A stretch of 62,119 nucleotides of DNA, filler included. It is 11 parts of 11 records of this genome, joined end to end, with 100 filler letters (N's around TTAATTAATTAA, not from the genome) between each part and the next. Parts side by side here need not be neighbours in the genome. Positions count along the whole stretch, not along the records: positions 20,937 to 30,423 come from SRR15195285_469; 10 more parts are not named here. One strand, given 5' to 3'. Positions within the stretch are counted from its first letter, which is position 1. Each line of letters opens with the position of its first letter. The position numbers and the translations under genes are program-made. Below the pieces are notes generated by a model. It did no database searches, had not been told where the DNA came from, and saw nothing but the letters and a program-made list of their open reading frames with translations. This document shows, in pieces, positions 5,001 through 58,576 of the stretch.

Positions 5001-5591
5001 ACCTGCAGCGAGCCCACTGCCCCCGATACCACCGTGCTCCCCATGTCGCGCGCATCAGCGAACCTCAGGAACAGCTTGACCACGATGCCGCCGCAGCAGA
5101 GGCGCAGAGCGAGCTGAATCCATGGCAGCAGGAACTCGACAGTCTCCGGCTCCATCCACTGGCGTATGTAGCCCATGGCGAACGCCTCGATAAAGATGCT
5201 GCCGGCCGACCCCACTGCCATGCCCTGGATCCCGACTCCTAGCTTGCGCTTCTTCAGCGCCGCAAACGCGCCCACGCTGCCCGCGTAGGCCGCTCCTGCA
5301 AACCCAACCAGCGTCGCCGGCCCAATCGGCAGCGACGGGTCCGCCTGATGGGGTGCGATGGTGGCCAACATCATCGGCGCGCAGGAGGCCCAGAACACGG
5401 TGAGTATTCTCACCACGTTCGCGATCTTCTTGCCTGCAAGACACCCACGGCGCTCGTCAGTGTTCTGGCGGTGGCGCAGGCAGATACTGTGCAGCGGGAG
5501 GGGTGCGTGCTGGCGCCGCACCAAACAGCGTCATGAAGACAGTCGCGGCCATTGGCACCACCCGCAGGAACACCCCCGAGATCACGCCCAT
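2093..5591 (-). CDS. Polytopic membrane protein: DUF4203/TMEM198-like domain, two tetraspanin-like 4TM modules, acidic/Lys-rich tail and Cys/His finger; join(5591..5522,5433..2427,2291..2093)
   Basis: A 1033-aa ORF with about 14 hydrophobic segments. Introns 5521..5434 (GTGCGG..CTTGCAG) and 2426..2292 (GTGAGT..TTGCAG) both keep the frame. They add the N-terminus MGVISGVFLRVVP and the C-terminus ...HAWQKDAEAEECNDC...CHPMGEEV*. Domain names are from motif resemblance only. Confidence 0.75.
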
Positions 5592-6453: not shown

Positions 6454-6553
6454 NNNNNNNNNNNNNNNNNNNNNNNNNNNNNNNNNNNNNNNNNNNNTTA
6501 ATTAATTAANNNNNNNNNNNNNNNNNNNNNNNNNNNNNNNNNNNNNNNNNNNN
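6454..6553. other. Artificial contig-join spacer
   Basis: N44-TTAATTAATTAA-N44, with stops in all six frames; identical at 10 sites. Confidence 0.99.
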
Positions 6554-6900
6554 CAGGTCGCGAAATCAGGCATCGCACAATACTCAGAGTACAGATGTAC
6601 AGCTGTACTAGATCTAGATCTACTAGTAGATCTAGTACACTGCACTGCATGGGCATGCTCTTCATGACCGGTTGCGCGCCGCCGGTGGGCATCGCACCTC
6701 TGGCTCTGCTCCGGCGGAAGAGCAGCAGCCTGAGGCTGAGCTGCTGAGCGCGGTGGCTCGGTTCAGGCTGCGATGTGACACTGGAGAGCTGGCGCATGAC
6801 TGTAGGTAGGTAGCCGAGGTGTCGCTTCGGCGCCTTACGGCATCAAGATGCGCGGGATGTGCGCACTGGCGCGGCAAACGGCGATTCGATCGTGCTGCTG

Positions 6901-9900
6901 ATGTGGTTCGACGAAACCCTGTACGACGAGCCGGAGCCTGAGCCGCTCTCGGATCTCCATTGGGCTGTCCATGAAAACAACGTGGGAAAAGTGCTCACGG
7001 CGCTGTCGGCAGCAAGGGAGGATGGCGGGGAGGAAGCTGTCCGCGAACTGCTGGAGCAGCGGACGCCTCCCAAGCCCGAGACTGCCTACACGTCCCCTGA
7101 TCCAGATCACACGGCATACACGTGGGCTTGCAACCAAGGTCACGCTGATTGCGTCGAGGAGCTGGTGCGCGCCGGATGTGACCGGACAGCACGGGCACCA
7201 AGTGGGGAGACGGGCGCGGAACTGGCCAGGCGGAGGTCAGAGAGGTTTGATGGCTGCTTTGAGGTTCTCAAGCGGCTGAGCAAGCTTGACGCAGAGCGCA
7301 GGGCAACTGAGGGCGCGACTGCAGGGCAGCCGGAGCGGAAGCTCTGGAAATCTCTCGGACGGGGGCTGAAGGCCGTGGGGTTTGTCAGAGAGGCCGAATT
7401 TCGCGCTGGCAATAGGCTTCGGAGCCTGGACAAGCAGGAGGAGGAGCGTGCCAAGCTGGCGGAGACAGCCCTCGTTGAGTCGCTCGGAGAATACTCTGCG
7501 AGACCGGAGCTCAGGACAACCATGCTGATCATTGCCGTAGAACTTGGTGATGTCGAAGCCGTGCGGGCACGTTTGGAGACTGGAGCTTCGGTAGAGGCTG
7601 CGCGCGAAGATAAAGTTACGCCGTTCTACTGTGCGTGCTATATGGCCGCGAAGCATCATGCTGATCGCCGTGAGTCGAGGCGCTACCTTAAAATTGTGAA
7701 GGAGCTCCTTGATGCTGGTGCAAACATCAACTGTGTTGGCCCAGGGGGTATGTCACCACTGGTCTGCGCAGCCAAGTATGGCGCACTGAGGCTCTGTAAA
7801 AGGCTGAAAGGCAGAGGCGCTGACCCGTTGGCCCCTACAAAACAAGGGCGGCTCACAGCGGTGGCTGCGGCAATGGTGATGGGTCACGAGGATGTCATGG
7901 ACTACTTTCTCGGCCCTCGGACGTATTTCGAAGTCCGAGAGAAGAGGCTGTCTCATGCGGCCATGGAAGCGAAGCTCGGCGGGTTGGTGTGGGTAGCAGA
8001 TATGCTGGAATCGATCTCTGAGAGAGAACGGATTGCGAAAGACGTTGCACTGGAGGCTGAGCAAAGGGCGTTGCAGGATGACATGGAGCTGGCAGAAGAT
8101 AGGGCTCAGACGCAAGCCGAGTTTGAAGCACAGCACGAAGAAGAGGTCATAGCTAAAGCAAAACGAAAAGTTTGGCGCGATCGTTTCAAGCGTGCCCTAG
8201 CACGCAAGCGTCAGCAGGAATGGGAAGAGGCACAGAACGCCGTCAAGCCAGCACAACACAAGCTACGCCAAGCATTTCTTGGATATGAAGCAGAGTACGA
8301 GGAGCGTGGCCGTGGGGGCGTGGGCGGTTTGCCTCTTGATAATTTGGTCGGGGTCAAGAGGATGACGCTTGAAGAGCTTTTGGATCGTGCCCGAGACCTT
8401 GCATTTCTGAAAGAGCACCCGGCATGGGATGCTGCTGTACGCGAGGTCCCGCCACCTACCGCCACCCGTAGGGAACGTCGCCGGCAGAACATCCGAGAGG
8501 AGCTGGCAGCATGGTGTCGGGATTGGCGTCTCGAATGCTGCGAGGATGAAAGACTGGGAGGAGCGAAATGTCAGGAGATAGACGTGTCATGCACGAAGTC
8601 CTTTGGTCGACAGACAAACGCTACTGGCGTGACGCGAAAAAGCCCGCGGACAAGGGCACGCTCTGCATGCAATGCGCCGATTCCACGCACTGCTGGGACC
8701 GGCGCAGATGCTGCACGCGCTGCGAAGGCACTTATGCTGACTGAACAAGAGAGGAAAAAGGACGAATCAGAATCCCTAGCCGTCTATGGAGCTTGGGTCG
8801 ACGGTGGGTGTAAGACTGGCATTGGAGTCCCCGTTCTTGTAGGAGAAGTTGGGCCATGGGCTGACACAAGTTCAAAGAAGAAGCTGACTGCTCCTATACG
8901 GAAGTTGCCTCGATCTGCCGGGATGCCAAGCTGCAGTGAGTGGCGACGGGCCCGTCGCATGCCCATTCGGCTGTTGGCGGCACAACTCAATGATCGGGGC
9001 CAACGATTGCAGATGTCCCTTGATGCGATCGTTGAACGGTGCTGGAATGCAGAACAAGAGAACAAGCTCAAAGCTGTCTTGGACGAGTTTGCGAAAGTTG
9101 GCGGCGTGACGACGTGCATTCGATTGCTCGACTGTATTCCTGCACTTGGAGAACAGCCGACAGTTCGCCTACGGCTGTTGACGCTGCTTGTGATGCTGAG
9201 CAAGGACGGTGGTCAACATCGCAAGGCAATGATGGAGCAGGGAGGCGTCGAAGTATGTTTGAGAGCGTTTCGTGATGCCGATAGTGGTGCTGAGTCGCAG
9301 TGTCTTGGACTGCTCGGGCTTTGCAATCTTGCACTGGAGAAGATAGGGCGAATGTGGGTGATGCAAAAGGAAGGGATTGTGAACGAGCTGGTATCTGCGG
9401 TACTACACGGTGTGGGAGGTAAGTTCTGCCTGCGCCCAGAGATGAGGGTTGATCTTGGCTTTGCCATCGCTAGCCACAATGGCAGCGAACCAGATACGGA
9501 CAAGATCGAGCCTAAGCACGCGAAGCTGCAGACCCAAGACCAAGCAGCGGCTCTGCTGCAAAGCACAGTCCAATCAGCGGCTCGGACGCTACTATCTCTT
9601 GTCGGCTTGCCAGATGGTTTGGTGCCTGAGCGTGGGGCAGGACCAGCTATTATCGAGGTCCTGAGCCAGAGACGTGCGCGGTGGGAGCGCGAACAGCGCG
9701 AAGACCCAACGGGAGCAAAGGCAGCCGCAAAGAAGCGCGCAGAGGCCGAAGCATTCCAGCGCTCATTCTTTCAGAAGGAAGAGATCGGATCACTCAAATT
9801 GACCGCTCACATGGTGCGACACGGAGTGTTGTCGATGTGGAAGACTGAGAGTAAGGAGCAGAAGATGGCCCGTGCTAAGGACGACGCGGAGGCAGACGAG

Positions 9901-10278
9901 GCAATCACAGCAGCAGTCGCGCAGCACGGTGACCGTAATGCTCCTTCGATATGCTATGCCAAACGTCAAGCTCCCGACCCAGAGCGGAGCCCCAGCGAGC
10001 GCCAAGAACTTCTGCAGTTCGTGCGTCACCACCCTTCCGCGTGGAGCACATGGCTAGTGTCAACACACCCGGACAGCACTGAGGTTGAGCCGCTGCGCTA
10101 TGCTCCGTCTGTGTGGCGTCATTTTTGGATGGACTACTACGCCAAAGTTGATCAGACAGACGAATGGAAGGAAAGCGTCGTGGCGCAACTGGAGCGCAAG
10201 AAGACGAAACTAGCGCAGCGCCACTGGAAAGCAGCTGGGCTAAAGCTTCAGCTTGGAGTGGGCCTCGCACGGAATTGA
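6901..10278 (+). CDS. Large ankyrin-repeat protein with central coiled coil and C-terminal ARM-like repeats
   Basis: Ankyrin motifs LHWAVHENN, TAYTWACNQGHADCVEELV, TPFYCAC, SPLVCAAKYG, AAAMVMGHEDV. E/K/R-rich middle region. ARM-like EQGGVEVCL...LCNLAL. First in-frame ATG at 6901. Confidence 0.8.
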   Translation: MWFDETLYDEPEPEPLSDLHWAVHENNVGKVLTALSAAREDGGEEAVRELLEQRTPPKPETAYTSPDPDHTAYTWACNQGHADCVEELVRAGCDRTARAPSGETGAELARRRSERFDGCFEVLKRLSKLDAERRATEGATAGQPERKLWKSLGRGLKAVGFVREAEFRAGNRLRSLDKQEEERAKLAETALVESLGEYSARPELRTTMLIIAVELGDVEAVRARLETGASVEAAREDKVTPFYCACYMAAKHHADRRESRRYLKIVKELLDAGANINCVGPGGMSPLVCAAKYGALRLCKRLKGRGADPLAPTKQGRLTAVAAAMVMGHEDVMDYFLGPRTYFEVREKRLSHAAMEAKLGGLVWVADMLESISERERIAKDVALEAEQRALQDDMELAEDRAQTQAEFEAQHEEEVIAKAKRKVWRDRFKRALARKRQQEWEEAQNAVKPAQHKLRQAFLGYEAEYEERGRGGVGGLPLDNLVGVKRMTLEELLDRARDLAFLKEHPAWDAAVREVPPPTATRRERRRQNIREELAAWCRDWRLECCEDERLGGAKCQEIDVSCTKSFGRQTNATGVTRKSPRTRARSACNAPIPRTAGTGADAARAAKALMLTEQERKKDESESLAVYGAWVDGGCKTGIGVPVLVGEVGPWADTSSKKKLTAPIRKLPRSAGMPSCSEWRRARRMPIRLLAAQLNDRGQRLQMSLDAIVERCWNAEQENKLKAVLDEFAKVGGVTTCIRLLDCIPALGEQPTVRLRLLTLLVMLSKDGGQHRKAMMEQGGVEVCLRAFRDADSGAESQCLGLLGLCNLALEKIGRMWVMQKEGIVNELVSAVLHGVGGKFCLRPEMRVDLGFAIASHNGSEPDTDKIEPKHAKLQTQDQAAALLQSTVQSAARTLLSLVGLPDGLVPERGAGPAIIEVLSQRRARWEREQREDPTGAKAAAKKRAEAEAFQRSFFQKEEIGSLKLTAHMVRHGVLSMWKTESKEQKMARAKDDAEADEAITAAVAQHGDRNAPSICYAKRQAPDPERSPSERQELLQFVRHHPSAWSTWLVSTHPDSTEVEPLRYAPSVWRHFWMDYYAKVDQTDEWKESVVAQLERKKTKLAQRHWKAAGLKLQLGVGLARN

Positions 10279-12183: not shown

Positions 12184-12283
12184 NNNNNNNNNNNNNNNNN
12201 NNNNNNNNNNNNNNNNNNNNNNNNNNNTTAATTAATTAANNNNNNNNNNNNNNNNNNNNNNNNNNNNNNNNNNNNNNNNNNNN
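12184..12283. other. Artificial contig-join spacer
   Basis: N44-TTAATTAATTAA-N44, preceded by a 26-G run (12158-12183). Confidence 0.99.
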
Positions 12284-16440: not shown

Positions 16441-16540
16441 NNNNNNNNNNNNNNNNNNNNNNNNNNNNNNNNNNNNNNNNNNNNTTAATTAATTAANNNN
16501 NNNNNNNNNNNNNNNNNNNNNNNNNNNNNNNNNNNNNNNN
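16441..16540. other. Artificial contig-join spacer
   Basis: N44-TTAATTAATTAA-N44. Confidence 0.99.
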
Positions 16541-20836: not shown

Positions 20837-20936
20837 NNNNNNNNNNNNNNNNNNNNNNNNNNNNNNNNNNNNNNNNNNNNTTAATTAATTAANNNNNNNN
20901 NNNNNNNNNNNNNNNNNNNNNNNNNNNNNNNNNNNN
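20837..20936. other. Artificial contig-join spacer
   Basis: N44-TTAATTAATTAA-N44. Confidence 0.99.
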
Positions 20937-21643
20937 CGGCCCCGCCCTAGCGCTAGCGATGCAGCGAGTAGTAGAGAAAAGGGGGTCCCAGCCCAACAGT
21001 GAGAATCTGAGTCACCATTCTCCTTGCGTCAGATTGCGTGCTAGTCTTGACGCAACAATGTCTGATGCTGGCCAACTCCTTGCAAGCTCAGCGCTCTGCA
21101 AGTAGATGTCACTAGCTCACCCAGCAAATGGCAGCTGATAACGCTCGGTGCGTGCCCCACTCTAATCACCCTCGACCTCTAGTAGTACCACACCCAGCGA
21201 TGAGCCGATGACGCGCGTCCCGCGGCGCGCGCGTGCGCCCTGCGCATGCATGATGGCGCGCGAGCGCCCGAGCGGGATTATATACCATTCATAGTATCCA
21301 TGATCAACATTATTGCCGGTACTTGAGTACAGTACCATATACTGTATGATCAATTCCTGATCCTGGCATGAATTTGCCCAACGGTCAGGGTCACCCGCGG
21401 GGTGTCGGATTGACCCGGCGCCGATTGCTGACACGCGCGCTAACACGCAACAGTCGCACGCGCAATTTGACGAGAGGACAGCGAGCCTACCGGGGCACTT
21501 GAACCGGCTGTACCGTGTACCCCGTTGCCGGCACGCCGATCAGAAAATACGAGCGTTCCCATGCAGGTGCGCCGCGCGTGAACGATTGGCGCACGGGCCC
21601 GCCCCCGTTCGCTCGCTCGCGCACTCCGTGAACGAAGTGCGGC

Positions 21644-24349
21644 ATGGCCTTGGCGGTGGTTCGCTCGATAGCTGCATTAGCAGCAGCAGCGGTGGCGGCG
21701 GCAAGCTCCTCACCGCCGGGTAATAGCTCAGCGTGGCCGCTGCCGAAGCTCGGCTGGTCTTCGGCGAATGGCACGCTGCCGAACGGATACGCACCGGCTT
21801 ACCTGGCCTCTGGTCTGTTTGGCGTGCGCGTGCCACGCTACGCGATCGGCGGCAGCGTGTGCAAGGACGGCGACCCGAAGCAGTGTCTGGGGGACCGCAC
21901 GGTGCAATGTCTCGTCGGCGGCTACGAGCACCAGCAGGTGCACGGTTGCACGGTTGGCTGCGACCACCCGGACCAGAACCTCGGCGGCGCTCCCGCGCCG
22001 TACCCGTTCCAGACCGAGGTCAACGTCTCGGCACCCGGCGGCCAGCAGTGGTTCAGCCTGCAGCAGGCAATCACAGGGCACTCGAATGCGACGGAGCTCA
22101 AAACCACGTCACAGTCGCTGGACTTTGCCACTGGTGAGATGAGCACCGTGCTCGAGTTCGAGGCCGTGGATGGCAGCTGGAGCCTCGAGCTGGAAGTGAT
22201 GCAGCTGATCTCCCAGGCGATCCCGTCGGTCGCACTGCAGACGCTGACACTCTCTCGGCGCACTCCTGCCGACCTTAACGTCAGCTTTTACCCGATGCTG
22301 ACCACGGAGAACCTTGCGGTGGAGACGACGAAGCCGACCCTGAACTGCCCGCGCGTTGGCATGCGCGACAAGGGCTGCCCAAACGGAGGAGGAGCTGGAG
22401 CTGCTATTCTCATGGAGATGACGAGCAACTCTGGCAGCAAGATGGCCGCCGCGGTCTACACGCAGTGCGTGAACTCGGCGAATCCGAAGCCAATAAAATG
22501 TCCAGGTGCTCTGCCCTGCGGCCCTGTCGCGCCGTGCCAGTCTGGCCCCGAGGCGGGTGCGATGGTTATGCAATCGCACGTGGCGGTTGTCGGTGACGCC
22601 TCGCACCCACGACCGTTCAAGGGCGCGGTCGGCATGATGTGGCGCTCAGGCTATTTAGGTTTCGACGTGCACCGGCAGCAGAACCGCGCCGTGTGGTCCG
22701 ATCGCTGGAAGAGCCGGGTGGTCGCCACCGGCCCCGCGGTCACCGCGACTGTGCAGGCCGGTCTCGACGCCAGTCTGTTCAACCTGCTCTCAACAGCGCA
22801 TAAGTCCTCTCGATCGAGCATGAGCATCGATGGCTACTCGTGCACTGAGTATGGCGGCCATATCTTCTGGGACGTTGACTTCTGGATGGTGCCACCTCTG
22901 GCGCTGCTGGATGCCCCGGTGCAGAAAACTCTTTTCTTTTTTGGAGCCAATTTTGTATTGTAAAGAGCGTACATTTGTCCACGACAGGCTCGGGACAAAT
23001 ATAGGGAAACTCAAAAATGACCCGTTTTCTTTTAACAGGCTGCCGCCGCGGTGCAGAGCTTCCGCGGCAGAACGCTCGAGGAGTCGCAGAAAGCTGCCTC
23101 GCTTTACGGCGTGGATGGCGCACAGTTCCCCTGGGAGACGTCTATGTCAGATGGCAGCGATGCCACCACAGGTGCATCCCTCTGGTCAGAGCAGCACATC
23201 ACTATCGACGTGGCCTTGGGCGTGTGGGCTACTGCAAAGTCGATCAACAGCACGGCTTTTACGCGGGACACAGCATTCCCTGTGCTCTCAAACGTGGTGA
23301 GAAGAAATGGTTGAATTTCCCTGCTCCAATTTCCTTATGTTCGTCCCGAACCTGCGTGGCCACAATCATCGATTTTCATATATGCATTTTCGAATATATG
23401 AAAGCTCAAAACAGCCTTTGCTCAGGCCGACTGGATTTGCTCACGTGGCACGTGGACCGAGCGTGGCTTCGAGGTGCTGTATATGGGAGGCCCTGACGAA
23501 GACACCCCCCAGGTCAACAACAGCGGCTACTTCAACGTCGGCAGCATGATCGTGCTTCGCTCCGCGGTGGCGCTAGGAAAGCAGCTTGGTCCATCCATGG
23601 GCGGCCACGTCGACGCGAAGAGTCTGCTCAAGTGGGAGAAGACGCTAGAAAACTTCTTTTTGGCCAAGACACCGGACGGTGTGATCAAAAGCTTCGACGC
23701 TTCTCCCGATGACATCAGCAAGGCAACTGTGGAGAACTGGTCGCTTGGGTCTCTGCAGTACTTCCTCGCCCAAGGCTTTGCGCTGCCGTTCGATGCCGAG
23801 ACGATCAACAAGACGCTCTATGCCGAGGAGATCATCCGTCACCGGGTGCCAGCGTCCAATGCAGTCGGCTGTGGCTACACGCTGCATCCTGACGCGCCGC
23901 ATGACGAATGGATGATCTGCCCCTCGTACGCCGTGGTTGGAGCGCTGATGGGCTCTTCCGTTCAGTTTCGCAACTTTTCGGACGGGCGTGCGGAGGCGGC
24001 CGCTAACATGGCAGTCTTTGGTGACAAGTACTTCCTACCACCCTTTATGATCACGACTGAGGCCGGGTCTCAGTTCCGTCATTGGGGCAATTACATGACC
24101 AATTTCGGCTCCACCCTCGGCGCCGTGATGTACGGTTTTACTGGCGTGCAGCCGGCAGACGACCTCACTGGCAAGATCAGCCCGACGAGCTACGGTGTGC
24201 GCGCAGCAGCGTTGCCAGCAGGCTGGGATGAGATTTCCTACGTCGCGTACTTTGGCGGGGCGCGCTACGCAGTGACGGCACGGCACGGGCAGCACGCGAA
24301 TATCACGCTGATGGGCGAGAACGAGTTCAGTTCACTAAACATCGTTTGA
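21644..24349 (+). CDS. Secreted glycoside hydrolase family 65-like protein; join(21644..22918,23039..23296,23426..24349)
   Basis: Signal peptide; GH65 motifs YGGHIFWDVDFWM, GAQFPWET, EQHITIDVA, ADWICSR, GPDE (catalytic acid region) and VNNSGYFN. Two phase-0 GT-AG introns. Confidence 0.88.
22919..23038 (+). mobile_element. Introner-like intron, forward orientation (GH65 intron 1)
   Basis: AT-rich 120-nt intron with internal inverted repeat AGAAAAC(22923)/GTTTTCT(23024) and core CCACGACAGGCTCGGGACAAATATAGGGAAA (22979-23009). The core recurs reverse-complemented in intron 2. Confidence 0.65.
23297..23425 (-). mobile_element. Introner-like intron, reverse orientation (GH65 intron 2)
   Basis: 129-nt intron. 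The reverse complement of 23330-23359 is CCACG-CAGGTTCGGGACGAACATAAGGAAA, 26/31 identical to the intron 1 core. The termini GTGAG...CTCAG are near-inverted. Confidence 0.6.
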
Positions 24350-24570
24350 AAATCAAAAACGCAAAGAAGCTGTGTGTTGCTGACACACACGCTCGCACGT
24401 TGTGCAAACGTTGGTTCGGAAGCTAGCTAGATTATGTACTGTACGGCAATGGCATTCAAATTCAAGCAGTTGACACCACCTTCTGCCCAGTGTCACTTTC
24501 GGTGTGCCTACGTTGTGAGCAAACAAGGACTGCTGCCTTGTCGTCGCTGAGCTCGCACCGGTAAAATGTA

Positions 24571-27228
24571 TTAGAAGTCCACCGGCTGAACGCCCTTTGC
24601 TTTGTGCGCAGCATCACATAATGCGCTCCCCAGAGCAGCTGAGCTGTACTTCGCGAGCTCAGGTGCCTGAAACCAGGGTGGCGCCGTCTGCCCAGCCTCC
24701 AAGAGGCGCTGCTTGAGCCGTGCCACGTCAGCCTTGTGCTTCGTATGGTTGATGAGATTCTTCGTTTCCGAGACATCAGCCGTCAGGTTGAAGAGGCAGC
24801 CGCTGAGGCAGTTGATGCCGTCTGGATCTGCCCATGAAGGTTGTGGTGCACGGGCAGCATTGCCATCTGGCTCCAACAAATGGCCAGCCTCGCAGCGCTC
24901 TGGCATGCCACAGTCACAGCACCGTCACACATACCAAGGATCAGTCACAAGCGCCGAGCTTGGTTTGCTTTTGCACCGCATGAAAGAATTCAGTCGACTG
25001 CTGTTTACACTGAAGCACAGAGAAAAATGCCGTTGAATCCTCTTTACCTGCAAATCCGGCCAGACCACACTTGCCTCCCGTCGCCCCGAAAGGTACCCGC
25101 TCCCCGCTCGTACTTTCATTCATCGGAAGCCGTCGTGGATCGCCAACATAACCGAGCATCAGCTTGAGGTCACCGGATGTTATGACTGCTGGACAATTTC
25201 GCCCGCCCCAGCAACCCTGGGTGCAGTTGCCGGGGTAATACTTCGGAGAGTGCAAATGATGAATAAGCTCTGTGCGTGGTGCTGAAGCACCCGTTGTCAT
25301 TGCTGTACACCCGCAGTGCATGCACCATGCGCAAATAGTCGATCGAAAGAAAACCAAAATACGAAGAAATGAAGACTGTCTCAACAATTCAAACATGGAG
25401 AGGCACAGCTAATCGGATTAACGCGACATATTTCACACCGGCCCAGTGATCTTTCGACTCGTCTTGGAATGGGGCCTGCTCGAGAGATGCTATGGTCGCA
25501 GCTGAAATGCCAGCAACTCCGGTGACATAGGTTGCCCTCCAGTCAGCAACGTGCGCAAGTCCGTCGTACTTGCTCCCGACTGCGGCTTTAGGTAGTTTCG
25601 ACCACCTGTCATCACCAAACACAAGACGGATGGTCTCATTCAGTGTAACCTCGTCAACCCAGTGGCAACTAAGATCGCCCGATCGGAGCGCTTCCATCGC
25701 GGGTGTTCGCAGATTTCAAGTTTGCTTACCAGATAAAGGCCTGGGTGCGGACTCCGCCCTCATAGAAGCCGTGTTTGCCTGCGAGACACTCCACCATGAA
25801 GAAATTAGCAAGGCGAAATCGCTTGATTAAATTAGATCGAACACGTAAGTTCTTGAGGGGAATACCTCCGCGGTGAGGGAAGTTGTTCGCGTGATCCAGC
25901 GGTCCGCCGTTGTCTCTACACACAAACACGATGCACGTAAGCACGTAAACGCGAACGGAGCATTCTAGTGCTAGAATCCGCCAGCGATAAGTTCTCGAAA
26001 CAAAAGCAACCGGAACACCTTATATAAAATCAACAGCAGCTCACGATGTGAAACTAATGATGCAGTTCTCGAGCATATCAGCACTCTGTAGAGCGTTGTA
26101 GATGCGGCCTATCTGTACGTCCATTGTCGAAATCTGGGCTGCCGTAACCTTGTAGGTGTCGCTTCTGATGATTGCCTCGAATTGATCAATGTCTGGCTTC
26201 GGTGCCTGATGCGGATCGCTGCCCAAGTGACGAAACGCACACGATGCATCTTGAAAAGAGGGACCACTTAGCCACACCCACACTGCATTGACCAGTTTCA
26301 AATAGCTTTGATGAAGATAGTGCGGACAATTGGGCTGCTACGACTTACTGTTCGTTGTGGAAGGCTATGTACATGAACAGAGGTGCTGGTGGCGTATGCG
26401 CGCCGATGGTGCGGACAGCGTGGTCTCCAAAAAGGACCGACTCATACGTGCCATTATCTGGGGACATTCCCAGTATGGTCCCGGTGTTGTTCGACATGTC
26501 ACTCCAAAGCCCACCGAGGCCTGGACCTGGGCAGTTCGAGCCAGTAGAATGGGTGTGCGCCCAGTAGTCTTCGGTCATTGCGTGATAGTAGCCCAGGAAG
26601 GACGAGTAGCCACGGTACGTTGGCGTGTAGGATCGGGTCGAGCAGCCCAAATGCCATTTTCTACCAGCAGGACACGGCGGCGCGATGGAAACGGGCCGCG
26701 ATCAGACGGGACAGAACAACAGTCCAAATGTGGCGCGGCGTGCGCCGCACCCGATCGCGTGCGATATGTAGCCCTTAGTCTCGAGCAGCTGCGGTATCAG
26801 CTTGAAACGCGGGTCTGCCCCGAGTTTGTTCGAATCTACAGTCTCCCACGGGGTTGCGGCTCCGCTGTTGTCGTAGTATCCCATTTGCCATGGGAGCCGG
26901 CCTGTGTGGAAGCCACTGCGCGACGGAGCGCACACCTTGAACGCGTGGTGGTTGGTAAGCCGAACCCCGCCCAGCGCAAGCTTGTCGATCCAAGGCGAGG
27001 AGATCAGCTCATTGTGATAGCCAACATCGTTCCACCTACACCGAAAAAGAGACTGAATCAGAAAGTGTTACTGTACAATTCACTGTTTGTGCGAAGGGAG
27101 GATCACCCAACGTCGTCGCCCATAATGTGGATGATGTGCGGCAGCGAGTCGCTCGACGCCAGGCAGCAGCCGGGCCGAATCAGGGCAAGCAAAGCCACCA
27201 GTGCAGTCGTCGCCACCGCTGCTACCAT
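24571..27228 (-). CDS. Secreted formylglycine-dependent sulfatase (S1, arylsulfatase B-like), about 9-10 exons
   Basis: Signal peptide; PHIIHIMGDDVGWNDVG, CAPSR (CxPxR) ...TGR, GKWHLG, HDPHQAP, SDNGG, RGGK..YEGGVR, HVADW, LFNLTADVSE. Frame-consistent introns include 27106..27036, 26750..26661, 26348..26219 and 26044..25916. Confidence 0.92.
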
Positions 27229-27272
27229 GCTGCTCGCTGTCGTGCTGTCGTGCTGTCGTGCTGTCGTGCTCG
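27229..27272. repeat. (TGCTGTCG)x4 tandem repeat just upstream of the sulfatase ATG
   Basis: Direct reading: GCTGTCGTGCTGTCGTGCTGTCGTGCTGTCGTGCT. Confidence 0.8.
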
Positions 27273-28040
27273 CCGGCCTCGCGCACAGATAGACCCGCCA
27301 ATTCAGTCGGGTGATGCGATAGAGAGCAGGCCGTCTCCGTCGTCGCGCTGCCGCGCGCGGCACGCGCGCGCGTGAGACGCGTCGCGCCGCACGCGCGCGC
27401 GCCGGCGCGCGGTCACAAACCCGTGTGTACACATGAGAAGTCATAATGGACAATCCGGCGCTTGGTCGCGATTCAGTGATTTCGAGTATTCTGTATTCTC
27501 AAGCGCCGGAGGACTCCGTGAAACGCGCGATGAGAAAAGCTGAAGAGTAATGATACATCATACAATGAATGTAAATTGTACCGGGCAGGAATCCCTGATC
27601 GGCGTTCGGCACCGGCGCGAACACGCCAACGCTCGACAAGCTGCTGACCTCACCGGAACGGAGGACGGGGAATCGGGGAAGCGTAGCCACAGAGAAACCC
27701 AAGTACATTCTCGTATTCATCATTCAAAGATTTCTAAGTTTGTGAATATCAATTCACAGAAATCGTTATGAGATTATAACACTGCGAAGGCCTGGAGCAT
27801 GAGGGTGAGACCCATCAAAAACAGGTCTTGACTCAGCGACAGAATTCTGGCTGCAATTCGCAAATCACTACTACTTTAGCCAAAACAACTGTGGTACATT
27901 ATCACATTACAGTCATATTATAACCCCACCGTTGTTTCGTCTAAATTGCACGTTTTTCGCTGACAGTCAGCCACATGAACACCCAGAATCAGGCTGGGTG
28001 ACCTCACCAGGTTGGTGGGGGTGGTGGTGGCGCTGGGGTT

Positions 28041-28235
28041 GCAGCAGCAGCTACTGCATTGCGGTGGTGAGGACATTGGCAGTGGTGAGGGCATTGGCAG
28101 CAGCTACTGTATTGCGCGGTGAGGACATTGGCGGCAGCTACTGCATTGCGGTGGTGAGGGCATTGGCAGGAGCTACTGTATTGCGGTGGTGAGGGCATTG
28201 GCGGCAGCTACCGTATTGAGGGTGGTGAGGGCAGT
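28041..28235. repeat. ~35-bp minisatellite, about 5.5 copies (GGCAGCAGCTACTGYATTGCGGTGGTGAGGGCATT)
   Basis: AGCTAC anchors at 28049, 28102, 28136, 28171 and 28206 (spacings 53, 34, 35, 35). Confidence 0.88.
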
Positions 28236-28282
28236 GGCTCCCCGGCGGGTGGGTGGGCGCTTGGTGGTGGGTGCGCGGGGTG

Positions 28283-29947
28283 ATGTTGGGTGTCGCCCCC
28301 GGGGTGGGGGTGGCTCGAGATGATGAGACTGGCAGCCAGTCGGCGGTCGAGGGCGGCTCGGAGGGGCTGGTGTCGCCGCTGGGCGCCGGGTCTGCGGTGA
28401 TCGGCAGGCTTCCGAATGACAGCCCCCAGCGTGCCATCACGCTGAGCCAGAACGGCATCGTCCACCGCTGGAGATGGGCCGACGATGGCTCCGAGCAGGA
28501 CATGCTGGTGCTCGGAGCGGGGGCGTCCGTGTCGTTCTCCGGCCCGCGGCTGGCGGCAGTCCTCGAGGAGGCCGCGAGAGCGCAGATGAATGCGGTCGAG
28601 CGACTTGCAGCCGGTGAACCGCACGCACCACTCTCGCTGCACACCTCAGCGGGCGGTACGCCTGAGATGGGGCCGTTTGTTGATGCACTACGGCCGCACT
28701 TGCCGTGGCCAGAGGCTCGCAGCGTCGCAGGGGACGACTGGTTCGTGAATCTGCAAACCGAGGGCACGAGCGCGGTGCTTGCGGCTGTCGACATATGCCT
28801 GCAGCAGGCGGCGCGAGACGACGGCTGCACTCCAAGCACGTCACCCCGCCGCAAGGTCGCGGTAGGCGCGTACAGTTACCACGGTCCAGGGTCGAGCAGC
28901 TTCGGGGCAGCATCGCCGCTTGGTGACAGCTTTGGCCCAAAGTCAGACCAGCTTCTGTACCCGGTTCCAGCGGCGCGCAACAGGCTTGCAAGCGAGACAG
29001 AGGCCGAGTTTCACCAGCGGATTTTGGCTGCATTCGAGGCATTTCTGGAGGCTCATTGTGACCAGATCGGTGTGATGCTTGTGGAGCCACAGTGGGGCTC
29101 GTCGCTGGCAGCGCAACCGTGGCCTGCAGACTTGCTGCGAACCTTCGTTGATTTGGCGCACGAACGCTCTATCTATGTTGTGTGCGACGAGATCATGTGT
29201 GGACTCGGTCGGCATGGAGCCGGGAAACTGTTCCTGTCAGAAGCTTGGGGCCTGGAGCCGGACGTGGTCACATTCGGGAAGTCGGTCGGTGGCAGCATTT
29301 TCCCGCTGGCAGGCGCCGTGGTGCGGCGAGGCAGACGAGCGTTCTTCAGTAGAGATGATCCAGCCACTGAGCAAGAGCGCGGCGCGGACAGTCCCCAGAT
29401 GGCAGTGCTGCAGAGCCACACGTACGCCGGAGCTTCTGGACTGGCCCTCATGGTAGCGAGGGCAACACTGGCGTCGGTCTCGGACTGGTTTGGCAATGTT
29501 GCAGACCGTGGCGAGCAGATTGCGACGACAATGCGATTTGCGATGCGCAGCGCATCAGCAGGCATGCTGCGCTGCCACGGCCAAGGCCTACTCTGGGGTG
29601 CGGAGTGGAAACTGGCAACTTCCGAGCAGGCCGAAGCAGCCAACGAAGCTCTGGCCGCAGCGTGCCGAGCTGCCGGTGTGTGGCCATATTTCATCAAGGG
29701 CGGATTCATGGTGACGCCAGTTCTGGACGTAGACGAAGCGTCCCTTACGGTCGCGTTAGACCGGCTGGTTGCAGCTGTGCGCGCGGTGGCTCGCAGCATG
29801 TGGCAGATCAAAGCACTGGGAGTGAGCAAGTCACGGCCGACGAGCTCTACCGCGACACGATCAGCGAGACCTGCTGGAAATTTAGTAACGGATGATATAA
29901 CTGGGCCTGGGATGAGCACGGGCTTACTAATGTCGAGCGCTTTGTAA
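28283..29947 (+). CDS. Class III PLP-dependent aminotransferase (divergent, intronless)
   Basis: SYHG, VMLVEPQWGS, VVCDEIMCGLGRHG, PDVVTFGKSVGG (PLP lysine), HTYAG, HGQGLLWG. Start codon uncertain; first ATG is at 28283. Confidence 0.88.
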   Translation: MLGVAPGVGVARDDETGSQSAVEGGSEGLVSPLGAGSAVIGRLPNDSPQRAITLSQNGIVHRWRWADDGSEQDMLVLGAGASVSFSGPRLAAVLEEAARAQMNAVERLAAGEPHAPLSLHTSAGGTPEMGPFVDALRPHLPWPEARSVAGDDWFVNLQTEGTSAVLAAVDICLQQAARDDGCTPSTSPRRKVAVGAYSYHGPGSSSFGAASPLGDSFGPKSDQLLYPVPAARNRLASETEAEFHQRILAAFEAFLEAHCDQIGVMLVEPQWGSSLAAQPWPADLLRTFVDLAHERSIYVVCDEIMCGLGRHGAGKLFLSEAWGLEPDVVTFGKSVGGSIFPLAGAVVRRGRRAFFSRDDPATEQERGADSPQMAVLQSHTYAGASGLALMVARATLASVSDWFGNVADRGEQIATTMRFAMRSASAGMLRCHGQGLLWGAEWKLATSEQAEAANEALAAACRAAGVWPYFIKGGFMVTPVLDVDEASLTVALDRLVAAVRAVARSMWQIKALGVSKSRPTSSTATRSARPAGNLVTDDITGPGMSTGLLMSSAL

Positions 29948-30048
29948 ATGGGGTGTTTGTCGGTCACTAAGATCTGCTCCATGGAAATCAATAAAAATCA
30001 TACTTCTGCAACAGAGCACCGCGGGAGCGACTTGCCATTCCGTCTCAG

Positions 30049-30330
30049 CTACCACTCCGTCAGTTTGTAGTCCTTGAAAAACGCGCCATAGTGCAGTACC
30101 CGAGTGGCTAGTGCTGCAGGCTTCGAATCTTCATCAGGACACGCTGCATCATCCTGTGCTCGACCAGGATCAGACATGGACGTGGAAGAGGACGAGTGAG
30201 GCTGACGTAGGCCGAGCATGACTGGGTCCAGAATTCTGGCTGCTGCATCGATTTCATCGATTGGTGTCTGAAAACCTTCCTTGGCGAGGCGACTAGCCTT
30301 TTCCAGCGGGTTCTCGTCGTTTATCCAGCC
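30049..30330 (-). CDS. Last exon of a short-chain dehydrogenase/reductase (5'-partial)
   Basis: Acceptor CTTGTCCAG, then GWINDENP...FQTPIDEIDAAARILDPV...GAFFKDYKLTEW*, resembling the conserved C-terminus of an extended SDR family. Confidence 0.7.
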   Translation of the reverse strand, partial: GWINDENPLEKASRLAKEGFQTPIDEIDAAARILDPVMLGLRQPHSSSSTSMSDPGRAQDDAACPDEDSKPAALATRVLHYGAFFKDYKLTEW

Positions 30331-30423
30331 CTGGACAAGAATTCGCCAGCAACAACAGACACACAAACAAGCATTTGTGTGAAGGAAGCCACAGGAAAGA
30401 GAGAGAGAGAGAGAGAGAGAGAG

Positions 30424-30523
30424 NNNNNNNNNNNNNNNNNNNNNNNNNNNNNNNNNNNNNNNNNNNNTTAATTAATTAANNNNNNNNNNNNNNNNNNNNN
30501 NNNNNNNNNNNNNNNNNNNNNNN
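30424..30523. other. Artificial contig-join spacer
   Basis: N44-TTAATTAATTAA-N44, preceded by (GA)n. Confidence 0.99.
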
Positions 30524-34349: not shown

Positions 34350-34449
34350 NNNNNNNNNNNNNNNNNNNNNNNNNNNNNNNNNNNNNNNNNNNNTTAATTA
34401 ATTAANNNNNNNNNNNNNNNNNNNNNNNNNNNNNNNNNNNNNNNNNNNN
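34350..34449. other. Artificial contig-join spacer
   Basis: N44-TTAATTAATTAA-N44, preceded by (CA)n. Confidence 0.99.
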
Positions 34450-37793: not shown

Positions 37794-37893
37794 NNNNNNN
37801 NNNNNNNNNNNNNNNNNNNNNNNNNNNNNNNNNNNNNTTAATTAATTAANNNNNNNNNNNNNNNNNNNNNNNNNNNNNNNNNNNNNNNNNNNN
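37794..37893. other. Artificial contig-join spacer
   Basis: N44-TTAATTAATTAA-N44. Confidence 0.99.
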
Positions 37894-38324
37894 ACTCCCA
37901 ACGAATCCAACCCACCCTCTGATTGGAAATTGGGGACAGCGCACACTGCGCGAGGAGGGATCGCTGTTGTCCGACATGGTCATGGATGGCCCTCGTAGCA
38001 GCAGGCCTCTCTGATGCGTGATGGGCTCCCCTGTGATGGCCACAGACGGTCCTTCGCCTTGGGAGACTTCTGAGGTTTTACCACGCAGGAGAGTGCGATC
38101 CGAAGGGCGGGGGGTGGGGGGTGGGGGGATGTGAGCTAGGAGCCCTGACGGACAGGACGCAAGTGGGCGCGAGATGTAGTGGGCACTTGCGGTGCTCATG
38201 GAGGATCTTTGGCAGGTTCGTTAGGAGATTTGTGAGGGTACAGTGGGAGAGAGGACAGCAGGGGAGGGGGCGATGTGTCGTATTTTAAAGGGGAGGTTCT
38301 GAGCTAGGCAGTAGGCACGGTGGG

Positions 38325-41300
38325 ATGAGCGCGCCAAAGCGGGCCGGGCAGGGGCTCGAGGCTGTCGGCGCCAGTGAGGATCCAGGCATCGCGGCGACCG
38401 AGGGCCACCCTGCGCCTGGCACACGCGCCCGATCGCGGAGCTTCACAGGCCGCGAGCCGCAGGCCGTCCCGCCGAGGCCGGCGCGGGGTAGCGTTCAGCG
38501 CCAGTCCACGCCGCCAACCGTAGACCTATGCAGCTGGCTGAGCTCCATCGGCCTCCGGGAGCGCACGAGCGCACTCGCTGCCGCGTTAGGGGTCCCACCG
38601 GAAGGTGAGCCGATCACGAGCGAGCTCACTGAGCAGGCCGACAGCGCGCTCGAGGAGGCCGCTGTTCGGGCCGGCCTGCGATTGTTTGAGCGAAAGCGCT
38701 TCCTCAACGCCGTCGAGCAGTGCCGCAACGACCAGCCCGCTGGCGCTGCCTTCCCGCCTGCCATCGATGGCAAACAATCTGTGCGCCGAGCACTGAAGAA
38801 GGTGAGCCTCGAGCAATACCACGATGCACTCGCTGCGGAAGGGCTCGGGTGGGGGGATTTGTCCTGGACCACAGTGAGCGACCTCGAGGAGGCTGGCATG
38901 AAGGAGTTTCATGCAAAGCGGCTGGTGCGACACATCAAGGGCGTGAAATTCCGCGCCGTCGACGAAGAGGGCGTCCCGCCCGTACAAGCGCCCGAGCCCG
39001 AGCCAGAGCCTTCGACGTTGGACCTGCCGACGTTCATTAGCTCGATTGGAGGTGATCAGGAATCTTACTACCGCAATCTTCTCGCGGAGGATGTTCACAG
39101 GCACAAGCTGTTGCGGTCCAAACTGATGTTCGTCGGAAGCGGACGCTCGGGAAAGACGTCGCTAAAGCAGCGACTGACAGGCAAGAAGTTCAGCGAGCAA
39201 CAGGACAGCACATCGGGAATTGAAGTCGAAGTTGATACATGGACTGCAGGCAGACAGACATTGTCAGACTATCAGGAGGCCGTTGGGAGGCATTTTGCAG
39301 AGCTCAAGAACGATTGGGAAAGAACTCATAAGTCTGACTCTGGCTTATTGGACGACGATGGGCTATCGCGTAATCTTGCGAGGAGGCTCTGGACCGCGAC
39401 GGGTTTTGTCGAACCAGACGAGCTGAAGCCCGAGGATCTCGAGCTGACCGATCATGTACTCGGCGAAGGGCAGCACGGCAAGGTGTACGCTGGGGTGCTG
39501 CAGAGTGCTGGGAAGCGCGAGTCTGTGGCCGTGAAAATGATGGGCAAAGTCGATTCAGATGAAGTCGAAGCGTACGAGAAGGAAATTGCTACGCTGCGCA
39601 AAATATCCAAAACTTGCTCAAGAGTGTGTCGACTTTACGGTACTTGCGTGAAAGAGGGAAAGCACTGCATCGTGATGAAACGCTACCGATCGAGCTTGGC
39701 GGCTTTTCTCAAGGACCAGCCCGGCCACAAATTGTCGGCTGAGCAGACCATAGAGTATGCTGTCCAGATCAGTGCATCCCTGATCGAACTACACGAGGGC
39801 CAGTACCAGATGGTCGTGAATGATCTCAAGCCAGACAACGTGCTGATTGATGCACACCGCGAAGCTTACTTGGCAGGTTTCGGCATTTCCAAAATTGTCA
39901 ATAGCACAGCGAAATCGATAAAGCAAAATAGCTCTACAGGTGTGAAAGGAACTTTCCAGTATATGTCACCCGAGAGTTTCGATAAATTTAAAACCAAGGG
40001 CTTCGCAACGGATGTGTGGAGCCTGGGATGCACGCTGTTCGAGTTGCTCGCCGGCGAAGCGCCGTGGACAGGCCTTGACCATGGCCAGATCATGTTCAGC
40101 GTGGTTGTGCACAAGCAAACCCCACCGCTACCAGACGATTGGCACCCGGGTCTCCGAGATTTAATCCAGAAGTGCTTTTGCTACGAACCAGAGCATCGAC
40201 CGACCTCGCGACAATTTTATGACGAGGCAAGACAGCTGCAACGATCAGCAGCGCCTGGATCTCGGATCCCATTTTCGGCAAAAGAGAAGCGCCTACTGCA
40301 GTGGATAAAGCAAGACACGAATTTATGCGATGAGGACGTGGCTGATGTGCATGCCGTGGAGCAGGCTGCCAAACAACTCGAAGTGGACAGCAGCGTCTTA
40401 CAGCGGACGAACTCCGAGGTGCTGCACCACCTGGAACGCGCTATCATCAGAGCAACGCTACGTCTAGAGCAGGACACAGACAATCGATACCGCCGCGGGA
40501 TGTTTTTATCGCACTACCAGGTCACGGGCGGTCGCGACGTGATGCTGCTGCACGCGTTGATCGAGAAGGCCTGCCCAGATCTGAAGGATAAGCTTTGGTT
40601 AGATAAGAATCAGACACCGACGATAAAAGAAATGCGCCTGGGTGTCAAACAGTGCACGTTTTTCGTTCTGTACCTGTCCAGAGACGTGTTGAAGCGACCC
40701 TTTGTGCGCATGGAAATTCGTTGGGCGATCCATTACAGAAAGAAAATCCGGCTGGTATGGCCTCAGGATACCGAACACGCGGTCGTTCGATTCCAGGACT
40801 TCTTCGATGACTGTGCGGAAGCCGTCAACATTGCGGGATCAGATAAACCAGATACGGACGAGCTCGACATTAGCCAGATCTTCACCAACAATGTGGCGAT
40901 CCCTTACTACAATGAGAAGAAGAATGAGATGTTTCGCAATGCGTCTCTTGCTATTTTGCTTGAGCAATGTGGCTTCCGTGCTGAGGCAGCTAAGCTGCGA
41001 ACGCCTTTGGCTGTAACATTGCCGAAAGGACTCAAGGTTCAGCTGCAGTACAACACGTTTAATGGCAGTGCTCAAGCTGAGTACGTCAGCATAGGATTGC
41101 AGGATTCGCTGTCATGCAATTGCTGCGTGGATGTCAAACAGCAGCTTGACGAGAGGCATGGACATTTGCTTATCTACGTCACAAAAGACGTGTTTGCCCA
41201 ACCAGCGGTGATCACAGCTGTCCGACGGGCAATGGAGTTCTCACGGCCCATCACGTGTTTGATCGAGACTCAGCAAGAACACGGAGGCTTCACCTGTACA

Positions 41301-43383: not shown

Positions 43384-43483
43384 NNNNNNNNNNNNNNNNN
43401 NNNNNNNNNNNNNNNNNNNNNNNNNNNTTAATTAATTAANNNNNNNNNNNNNNNNNNNNNNNNNNNNNNNNNNNNNNNNNNNN
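43384..43483. other. Artificial contig-join spacer
   Basis: N44-TTAATTAATTAA-N44. Confidence 0.99.
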
Positions 43484-53045: not shown

Positions 53046-53145
53046 NNNNNNNNNNNNNNNNNNNNNNNNNNNNNNNNNNNNNNNNNNNNTTAATTAATTA
53101 ANNNNNNNNNNNNNNNNNNNNNNNNNNNNNNNNNNNNNNNNNNNN
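53046..53145. other. Artificial contig-join spacer
   Basis: N44-TTAATTAATTAA-N44, preceded by (GCAC)n. Confidence 0.99.
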
Positions 53146-58476: not shown

Positions 58477-58576
58477 NNNNNNNNNNNNNNNNNNNNNNNN
58501 NNNNNNNNNNNNNNNNNNNNTTAATTAATTAANNNNNNNNNNNNNNNNNNNNNNNNNNNNNNNNNNNNNNNNNNNN
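58477..58576. other. Artificial contig-join spacer
   Basis: N44-TTAATTAATTAA-N44. Confidence 0.99.

Follow-up and report, generated by a model that had tools for sequence, protein, structure and literature searches.

Both introns of a GH65 gene are oppositely oriented copies of one short element family abundant in marine metagenomes

Both introns of a GH65 gene belong to a single family of short elements that is present at high copy number in marine metagenomes, and the two copies lie in opposite orientations within the gene. The reading that we favour, with a probability of roughly 0.8, is that they are old copies of one short, non-coding mobile introner that spread through coding sequences in an uncultured lineage of marine protists. 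The gene lies on one contig (20937-30423) of the window, i.e., the whole stretch of 62,119 nt that was analysed, to which all positions refer. The window is made of 11 contigs joined by linkers of 44 N, TTAATTAATTAA and another 44 N, and is not a single chromosome stretch.

The GH65 gene and its two introns

21644-22918, plus strand: GH65 exon 1, from the putative start (first in-frame ATG) to the donor site, in an open frame spanning 21632-22963
22919-23038, plus strand: intron 1, 120 nt, GT..AG, phase 0, with an in-frame stop; full-length copy in the core-forward (majority) orientation
22923-23030, no strand: remnants of the two inverted arms in intron 1, with AGAAAAC at 22923-22929 and GTTTTCT at 23024-23030
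22985-23009, plus strand: conserved 25-nt core in intron 1, by pattern match
23039-23296, plus strand: GH65 exon 2, 258 nt, 86 codons, Glyco_hydro_65m positions 55-146, with inverted copies on both sides
23297-23425, plus strand: intron 2, 129 nt, GT..AG, phase 0, with an in-frame stop; more decayed copy with its core on the minus strand
23330-23354, minus strand: conserved 25-nt core in intron 2, by pattern match
23426-24349, plus strand: GH65 exon 3, ending with the stop codon, in a frame open to 24349; Glyco_hydro_65m from position 156

Protein homology and codon usage support 22919-23038 and 23297-23425 as phase-0 GT-AG introns of this gene. Exon 1 contains Pfam Glyco_hydro_65N and the start of Glyco_hydro_65m up to profile position 47, and the GH65 profile is continuous over both introns (from 47 to 55-146 and on to 156). 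The spliced product has 820 aa without stops, as against five stops in the unspliced version, and a single HSP (E 1.1e-59, residues 101-811) aligns it with homologue P0001, gap-free at both junctions. The longer-homologue search with GH65 returned one homologue only; exon 3 finds P0001 at E 1.1e-11. A G is the last and the first exon base at the borders of both introns, whose GC content (0.383 in intron 1, 0.411 in intron 2) compares with 0.59-0.64 in the three exons. Coordinates, letters, lengths, phase, flanking G and AT-richness are all as given in the original prediction. In annotating the genome, both AT-rich blocks should be treated as introns, and GH65 as intact.

A core of intron 1 had also been reported to recur inverted in intron 2, and nowhere else in the window. 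Positions 22979-23009 do match the reverse complement of 23330-23359, with 26 matches, four mismatches and one gap over 31 columns; the best local alignment of the two introns has 34 columns at 82%. The score of this alignment, 20, was reached by none of 5000 dinucleotide-preserving shuffles of intron 2 (top shuffle 18), and the degenerate 25-mer core occurs twice in the window, against 0.00 expected. No further core copy was found in the window by blastn, by pattern search or by nhmmer with the family profile at E up to 10. This profile has exactly two matches, introns 1 and 2 of GH65, and none in the ten other contigs (ca. 52 kb). The short inverted ends, also part of the original prediction, are present in both introns, but their match is weakly significant in intron 1 (local score 8, equalled in 51 of 3000 shuffles) and at shuffle level for GTGAG/CTCAG of intron 2 (2193 of 3000 shuffles reach it), where the arms have been lost.

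A high-copy family in marine metagenomes

A scan of metagenomes with the pattern CAGGNTCGGGACNAANATANGGAAA located the core in at least 120 contigs, with at least 140 copies, those contigs that were retrieved being 1-8 kb long. This excludes a core confined to the two GH65 sites, one of the outcomes that would have refuted the original prediction. A family profile, built from 35 clean copies, had 373 matches in the 241,739 nt of contigs found by the core, among the matches listed; the density in these host contigs was, again among the matches listed, ca. 1 copy per kb, with a median separation of 139 nt between neighbours. DNA run X1 gives a similar picture. Summed depth at 23006, within the core, was 143,935, versus about 3-20 in the flanks, and the contigs at the core run into many unlike flanks, with loose ends from 22979/22983 and from 23015-23017.

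Contig ends cut 28 of the 140 copies, leaving 112 complete ones among the matches listed. Boundaries were called with a tolerance of at most 6 nt between the GT and AG ends and the ends of the alignment; the 85 copies with no boundary shift (104-126 nt) were used for the flank, codon, arm-type, tree and arm-complementarity tests. The element is about 107-126 nt long, with a median of 112. Column conservation is 80-99% within the element versus 20-30% outside, and in the alignment of 35 bounded copies similarity likewise ends at the exon borders. We considered whether the copies could be gene duplicates and rejected this, since with the element masked only two pairs of loci had protein-level similarity (tblastx E<=1e-20). 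The metagenome set contains at least four similar introns in genes of different paralogy groups, which is how introners are recognized in the criteria that we took from Gozashti et al. (PMC12130899, section 12).

Each of the GH65 introns matches the family on its own. The nhmmer match of intron 1 (22920-23029, model 2-106 of 111, E 2e-17, 58.8 bits) fills the intron nearly from border to border, with 82.4% identity to the family consensus over 108 columns, and its arms outside the core are both similar to those of the family (reached by 5 and 2 of 5000 shuffles). The match of intron 2, on the minus strand, covers its middle only (23377-23329, model 36-84, envelope 23403-23308, E 5.7e-6, 21.8 bits); the intron is 74.8% identical to the consensus across 107 columns, and one arm is similar to the family (23 of 5000 shuffles) while the other is not (4720 of 5000). 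Against 167 copies chosen without the pattern, among the matches listed, intron 1 scores near the median of 54.2 bits and intron 2 is in the low tail, where six of the 167 score the same or less. Family membership of both introns is established by these sequence comparisons.

Outside the marine contigs, the exact 24-mer of intron 1 had no match in prokaryote genomes or in viral contigs, the degenerate core pattern had none in viral contigs, and the Rfam 15 covariance models had none at E<=1 on either strand of 22700-23700. The 20-nt core string did not occur in the main texts of the literature searched. Regarding the hosts, the EML/EF-hand protein of the window has metagenome relatives at 78-95% identity and named ones (animals, oomycetes and others) at ca. 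30%. Beside one metagenome copy there is an ABC-transporter exon whose nearest named protein is a EukProt “COSAG02” entry at 58%; this label stands for Picozoa co-assemblies, and 58% is too distant to name the host.

Orientation, splicing and mode of spread

Among the matches listed, 91 of the 112 complete copies have GT..AG in the core-forward orientation, 13 in the reverse and 8 in neither. A codon-usage score, for which only forward copies served as the training set and the tested contig was left out, assigned the gene to the GT-AG strand for 79 of 85 copies (70 of 76 forward, 9 of 9 reverse). Neighbouring copies lie on opposite strands in 68 of 245 adjacent pairs (metagenome contigs, among the matches listed), and the GH65 gene by itself carries both orientations, the common forward one in intron 1 and the rare reverse one in intron 2. 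At the level of sequence, copies of the family form sense-strand GT-AG units in both orientations in unrelated genes, in support of the original proposal that a GT-AG intron results whichever way the element inserts. Introners that work in either orientation have already been described for Aureococcus and Polarella, and this family is a further case of a known kind.

We infer that introns 1 and 2 are spliced in vivo from the GT..AG ends, the in-frame stops and the gap-free alignment with the homologue. On the other side, no splice joint at either intron was present in the covered parts of contigs from RNA libraries X11, X15 and X16, and one X11 contig (23005-23673) still contains intron 2 together with the 3' part of intron 1, for which DNA carry-over is a possible source. 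No intron-less allele appeared in the DNA run X1 contigs 22411-22989 and 23226-23898, an assembly level at which rare variants are dropped.

The two arms of a metagenome copy are inverted repeats of each other, with perfect complementarity over up to 21-22 nt. Complementarity is higher within copies (mean 11.15) than across copies (9.13), a difference reached by none of 2000 permutations. The arms were tested copy by copy, as RNAalifold missed their stem in a set of 54 copies whose ragged ends MAFFT had aligned badly. For target duplications of 3-8 nt, the flanks of the same copy showed no excess over cross-copy flanks in the 85 copies. The exon base at -1 is G in 77 of 85 and that at +1 in 62 of 85, with A or C at -2; AG precedes 14 of 21 GTAAG-type copies, and G|G..G|G is found in 28 of 34 GTGCG-type and 14 of 18 GTGAG-type copies. 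A 2-nt duplication of GG or AG is indistinguishable from splice-site selection in these copies. The copy tree, on which no branch is strongly supported, requires at least six orientation changes for the nine reverse copies. These are somewhat clustered, in that 300 label shuffles never needed fewer than 7 changes and needed 8.8 on average, compared with the 6 observed, and they adjoin forward copies of several arm types.

The element consists of an asymmetric conserved 25-nt core held between two mutually inverted arms, such as the pairs GTGAGTAAAAACGG ... CCGTTTTTCCTCAG and GTGCGAAAAACGCC ... GGCGTTTTTCGCAG of stored contigs. Given a G on each flank, either strand reads as a 5' GT(G/A)NG donor and a 3' T-rich tract with a (C/T)AG acceptor, because the arms mirror each other; with donor and acceptor on both strands, the spliceosome could remove the element in either orientation. 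In our favoured reading it would have spread as DNA, probably by a transposase supplied in trans, and presumably inserted at G|G sites. DNA transposition is the likely mode of spread, judging from the copies themselves. The original prediction had preferred it to reverse splicing, and this preference has some support: the co-varying arms and the repeated switches of orientation speak for it, while the far from random orientation (91:13, ca. 7:1 forward) and the lack of a duplication of 3 bp or more speak against it.

These last two observations are also what an RNA route would lead one to expect, either reverse splicing or intron transposition with subsequent reverse transcription and recombination. 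Orientation would then be kept, and the reverse copies, intron 2 included, would go back to a rare flipped founder, or to a few of them, still spliceable thanks to the symmetric arms. The clustering of reverse copies on the tree fits such a history, as do the insertion context, which resembles a proto-splice site, and intron 2 itself, which scores higher against reverse copies (mean 69.0) than against forward ones (57.4; Mann-Whitney p 0.0002). However, an RNA route needs no long co-varying inverted arms, which are a hallmark of DNA elements; it must still accommodate the six or more orientation changes and the reverse copies placed beside forward ones of several arm types, and 8 of the 112 complete copies lack GT..AG on either strand. 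We consider it unlikely, if the most serious of the alternatives.

Much less probable still is that a small transposon landed secondarily in two older GH65 introns, which would then not have been made by the element. The two introns are indeed 8-17 nt longer than the median copy, and the profile alignment of intron 2 spans only part of the model. Yet in intron 1 the match begins at the second intron base and stops 9 nt short of the intron end, where the terminal bases still correspond to the T-rich arm of the family plus AG, and metagenome copies lose their similarity at the exon borders. Old introns, moreover, look rare in the window, because no other breaks occur in its long open frames, with five ORFs of more than 1000 aa. 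A last alternative takes the match for an inverted duplication local to GH65, or for a product of chance or of shared AT-rich composition; the presence of just two copies, 320 nt apart, in the 62-kb window would have suited it. No shuffle reaches the core score, though, and the core with its arms in at least 120 unrelated metagenome contigs, together with the independent profile match of each intron, refutes it, so that we give it next to no weight.

Comparison with known elements and significance

The MITEs of TIR DNA transposons measure ca. 100 nt, are non-coding, end in inverted repeats, reach very high copy numbers and fall into subfamilies, and the family of the GH65 introns resembles them in all of these points. 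MITEs have a target duplication specific to their superfamily (e.g., TA or TWA), and are normally neither confined to coding sequence nor bounded by splice sites; in our family such a duplication is not seen and the copies are bounded by splice sites. Introners are the only known route by which genomes gain introns in bursts.

The introners of Aureococcus anophagefferens (Huff, Zilberman and Roy 2016), as summarized in papers citing that work (10.1101/2020.10.14.339549, 10.1101/2022.06.06.494994, PMC9481584), are short non-autonomous elements that created introns on a genome scale, and the citing papers describe introns from either insertion orientation. The family presented here is alike in being made of short, non-autonomous, intron-making elements of a (putative) marine protist that act in either orientation. 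It differs in length (ca. 210 bp in Aureococcus according to PMC9481584, versus our median) and in lacking, at 3 nt or more, a counterpart of the 8-nt target duplication that supplies one splice site in Aureococcus, the two being set apart by description and not by sequence. For the dinoflagellate Polarella glacialis, the account of Roy et al. (10.1101/2020.10.14.339549) has several classes of introner-like elements making introns on either strand, always with one orientation favoured. The likeness extends to splice sites that come in part with the element and in part from the flanking sequence; however, the Polarella classes are described with target duplications of 3-8 nt, whereas ours has G as the neighbouring base on both sides or, for one arm type, a preceding AG. 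Also comparable is family 4 of Acanthoeca sp. (Gozashti et al. 2022), reported with clear terminal inverted repeats and no target duplication, for which the printed example, from a marine metagenome-assembled genome, has 109 nt (positions 451-559). By description, our family resembles it in its inverted repeats, in its length and in the lack of a duplication of 3 nt or more; Acanthoeca is a choanoflagellate, whereas the nearest named relative of one of our metagenome host genes is from a Picozoa co-assembly. According to the figure given in PMC12130899, 72% of introner families are mechanistically unclassified.

A more speculative proposal, which we regard as possible but doubtful, is that the family may represent an uncatalogued and exceptionally prolific “symmetric intron cassette”, defined by four features taken together. 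These are the density in host contigs of around one copy per kb, with neighbours so closely spaced; the matched arms that bear donor, pyrimidine tract and acceptor on both strands; the putative insertion at G|G without a classical target duplication, which may point to a transposition mechanism outside the assigned superfamilies; and the putative sharing of the family by at least two protist genomes, be it as an old family or by transfer.

As the GH65 gene has been hit twice in opposite orientations, its pre-mRNA is predicted to pair intron 1 with intron 2, in a duplex that would loop out the in-frame 258-nt exon 2. In animals, paired inverted introns around an exon promote exon skipping or the formation of circular RNA.

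GH65, which is otherwise poor in introns, is a clean example of a gene with two introns from one short element, the first in one orientation and the second in the other. These introns tie the window to a family of very high abundance in seawater metagenomes. The symmetric arms would give a simple account of how one element can be spliced both ways, and the absent target duplication and the sevenfold orientation bias are tangible starting points for telling movement as DNA from movement as RNA in such elements.

The introns of the GH65 gene

The sugar-hydrolase gene of glycoside hydrolase family 65 (GH65) has three exons, separated by two gaps with GT...AG ends, both in phase 0 and with in-frame stops, and it lies on one of eleven contigs chained by ten spacers.

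The GH65 gene and the spacers of the window
20937-30423, contig with the GH65 gene
ending at 22918, + strand, GH65 exon 1
22919-23038, + strand, intron 1, 120 nt
23039-23296, + strand, GH65 exon 2
23297-23425, + strand, intron 2, 129 nt
starting at 23426, stop at 24349, + strand, GH65 exon 3
6454-6553, 12184-12283, 16441-16540, 20837-20936, 30424-30523, spacers 1-5
34350-34449, 37794-37893, 43384-43483, 53046-53145, 58477-58576, spacers 6-10

Each spacer is 44 N + TTAATTAATTAA + 44 N, with TTAATTAATTAA acting as a six-frame stop linker. The window is therefore a sample of a genome bin rather than a single locus, and genes on either side of a spacer are not implied to be adjacent in the genome.

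Judged by homology, both gaps are introns, because the Pfam profile of the GH65 catalytic domain runs unbroken over them (to position 47 in exon 1, 55-146 in exon 2 and from 156 in exon 3), their removal gives a product of 820 aa with no stops (five if they are retained), and one HSP (E 1.1e-59) aligns the spliced product to a GH65 protein homologue (P0001), gap-free at both junctions. They are AT-rich, with a GC content of 0.383 and 0.411 versus 0.59-0.64 in the exons. No splice joint was found at either intron in the contigs of three RNA libraries. Intron 2 is still present in one contig (23005-23673) of the public RNA library X11, for which carry-over of DNA could be the explanation.

A 31-nt core of intron 1 had been claimed to agree at 26/31 positions with intron 2 read as its reverse complement, and we obtained the same figure; the best local alignment between the two covers 34 columns at 82%, and its score was attained by none of 5000 dinucleotide-preserving shuffles. 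The accompanying claim that no other intron of the window carries this core also held, a third copy being absent by blastn, pattern search and family profile. In the predicted RNA fold of 22919-23425, the two inverted cores (22975-23009 and 23330-23362) base-pair in the minimum-energy and centroid structures, and this pairing would loop out the in-frame, 258-nt exon 2 (MFE -173.1 kcal/mol, z -2.99, with none of 100 shuffles equally stable). In animals, inverted pairing around an exon favours exon skipping or circular RNA.

An abundant family in both orientations

Summed depth at position 23006, inside the conserved 25-nt core, was 143,935 in a public DNA run (X1) and 634 in X11, with flanks at ca. 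3-20. X1 contributed 447 contigs aligning to the GH65 stretch, and those over the core run out into dissimilar flanks; their loose ends fall at 22979/22983 and 23015-23017. A metagenome scan for the core, with N at the four positions differing between the two introns, matched at least 120 contigs, so that the candidate family of the original prediction does extend beyond the window. Among the matches listed, 109 contigs came from one data set and the others from four further sets, and together they hold 140 core copies. When the listed contigs, 241,739 nt in all, were searched with a family profile made from 35 cleanly bounded copies, 373 hits (E<=1e-3) resulted, with about one additional copy per kb beyond each contig's retrieving copy and a median spacing of 139 nt between adjacent copies. 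By these counts, the GH65 introns share their core with a very abundant family. Some of the metagenome contigs (L008 from 69 onward, L039 from 16 onward) have two copies head to head, core and then reverse core, within ca. 60-100 nt; such copies are probably the source of one odd DNA joint in X1, 23003>23330 (intron 1 to intron 2), whose short side is only 24 nt.

Similarity among copies ends at the element borders and, with the element masked, protein-level similarity was common to only two contig pairs; the copies appear to be introns in genes with no relation to one another, and they occur in both orientations (forward being the core sense of intron 1, reverse that of intron 2). Among the matches listed, 28 of the 140 copies were truncated by contig ends. 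The 112 complete ones had GT..AG in the core sense in 91 cases, on the opposite strand in 13 and on neither in eight (no GT..AG within 6 nt of the aligned copy ends). One of these eight (L027:511-627) starts with GCAAG in place of GTAAG, has a normal 3' end (..TTGCAG) and may be a GC-AG intron. As an independent check of the coding strand, codon usage was scored with a training set restricted to the long frames that surround forward copies, leaving out the tested contig; the GT..AG strand scored as coding for 70/76 forward and 9/9 reverse copies (59/61 and 6/6 at a margin of at least 5). These figures support the proposal that the element forms a GT-AG intron whichever way it inserts. The best single case is GH65 itself, a homology-confirmed gene with one forward and one reverse copy. 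Nor is this arrangement rare: among the matches listed, the contigs hold 245 pairs of neighbouring copies, and in 68 of these the two copies are on opposite strands. The 45 copies with clear frames were in phase 0 (20), 1 (18) or 2 (7).

With filters off, a profile search of the window gave exactly two hits.

Profile hits in the window
22920-23029, + strand, intron 1, model 2-106 of 111, E 2e-17
23377-23329, - strand, intron 2, model 36-84, E 5.7e-6

Intron 1 is an ordinary family member, since it scores 58.8 bits against a median of 54.2 in 167 copies not selected by pattern, and intron 2 (21.8 bits) is among the most decayed copies. Their identities to the consensus are 82.4% and 74.8%, versus a mean of 87.9% (range 79.2-94.5) for the metagenome copies. 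Resemblance to the consensus persists beyond the core in both arms of intron 1 (5 and 2 of 5000 shuffles) and in one arm of intron 2 (23/5000); the second arm of intron 2 showed no resemblance in the shuffle test (5000 shuffles). Both introns represent the same introner (a mobile element generating spliceosomal introns), one copy in each orientation, and the original prediction was correct in substance.

Element anatomy and mode of spread

Copies are 107-126 nt long (median 112), with an asymmetric conserved core between two inverted-repeat arms that in some copies are perfectly complementary over up to 21-22 nt. Arm sequence varies by subfamily (e.g., GGTC/GACC, GCCAC/GTGGC, GGCAT/ATGCC) while the arms match within a copy: complementarity was 11.15 within versus 9.13 between copies, reached by none of 2000 permutations. 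Because the arms mirror each other, both strands would begin T(G/A)NG-A-rich and finish T-rich-CN(C/T)A and, with G on each flank, the transcribed strand would read GT(G/A)NG ... (C/T)AG either way. The flanking G occupies exon position -1 in 77/85 copies and +1 in 62/85. No target duplication of 3-8 nt was found in the flanks of bounded copies, and AG precedes GTAAG-type copies in 14/21. The 2-nt GG, or the AG before GTAAG-type copies, would fit a very short duplication and selection for splice-site context equally well.

DNA transposition had been preferred to reverse splicing, and we would give spread by DNA transposition a probability of ca. 0.6-0.65, because the inverted arms co-vary and orientation switches repeatedly on the copy tree, where 85 copies require at least six changes and reverse copies are interspersed with forward ones of several arm types. 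Four features weigh against regarding this mode as settled. Orientation is skewed 7:1 toward forward, reverse copies are more clustered than shuffled labels (300 shuffles, minimum seven changes), intron 2 resembles the reverse copies more closely than the forward ones (p 0.0002), and the tree from which the changes are drawn has no strongly supported branch. The first three would suit an RNA route with rare flips of orientation, which we nevertheless consider unlikely given the co-varying arms and the recurrent switching.

Host genome and known introners

Five uninterrupted frames exceed 1000 aa in the window.

Long frames in the window
2423-5530, - strand
6814-10278, + strand
38289-43439, + strand
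58529-62119, + strand
53094-57572, - strand, EML/EF-hand protein (53094-57569), 1491 aa

Ankyrin, Roc-kinase-TIR and EML/EF-hand proteins are among their products, as is an array of calcium-binding-EGF-like repeats, so named on its repeat sequence alone. Such frames suggest an intron-poor genome, in which GH65 with its two introner-derived introns therefore stands out. The EML/EF-hand protein has metagenome relatives at 95, 88, 84 and 78% identity, and several species from this uncultured lineage are therefore represented in public assemblies. A second repeat of ca. 150-240 nt, unrelated to the introner and often at contig ends, is common to ca. 13 metagenome contigs at 75-97% identity and probably represents a further mobile element from this host.

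Second repeat, with ca. 8 more loci
L013:3636-3872
L025:1090-1328
L058:1-148
L097:908-1095
L119:570-761

Introners are well documented, with 1,093 families in 201 species in one survey (PMC12130899). As described in the parts of the literature cited here, those of Aureococcus anophagefferens and several Polarella glacialis classes occur in either orientation, always skewed to one (10.1101/2020.10.14.339549), and the GH65-intron family likewise works in both, with a bias. It differs from them in showing none of the target duplications of 3-8 nt that the same account gives for Aureococcus and Polarella, and in its median length of 112 nt, versus ca. 210 bp in Aureococcus (PMC9481584). For an Acanthoeca sp. 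metagenome-assembled genome, an inverted-repeat family without duplication is described, with a 109-nt example (10.1101/2022.06.06.494994); compared by description only, the two families have in common inverted repeats and a similar length, and they may be the same family. A 20-nt core string was absent from the papers in a full-text literature search. Introners that work either way have already been described, and the GH65-intron family is not another kind but an addition to them.
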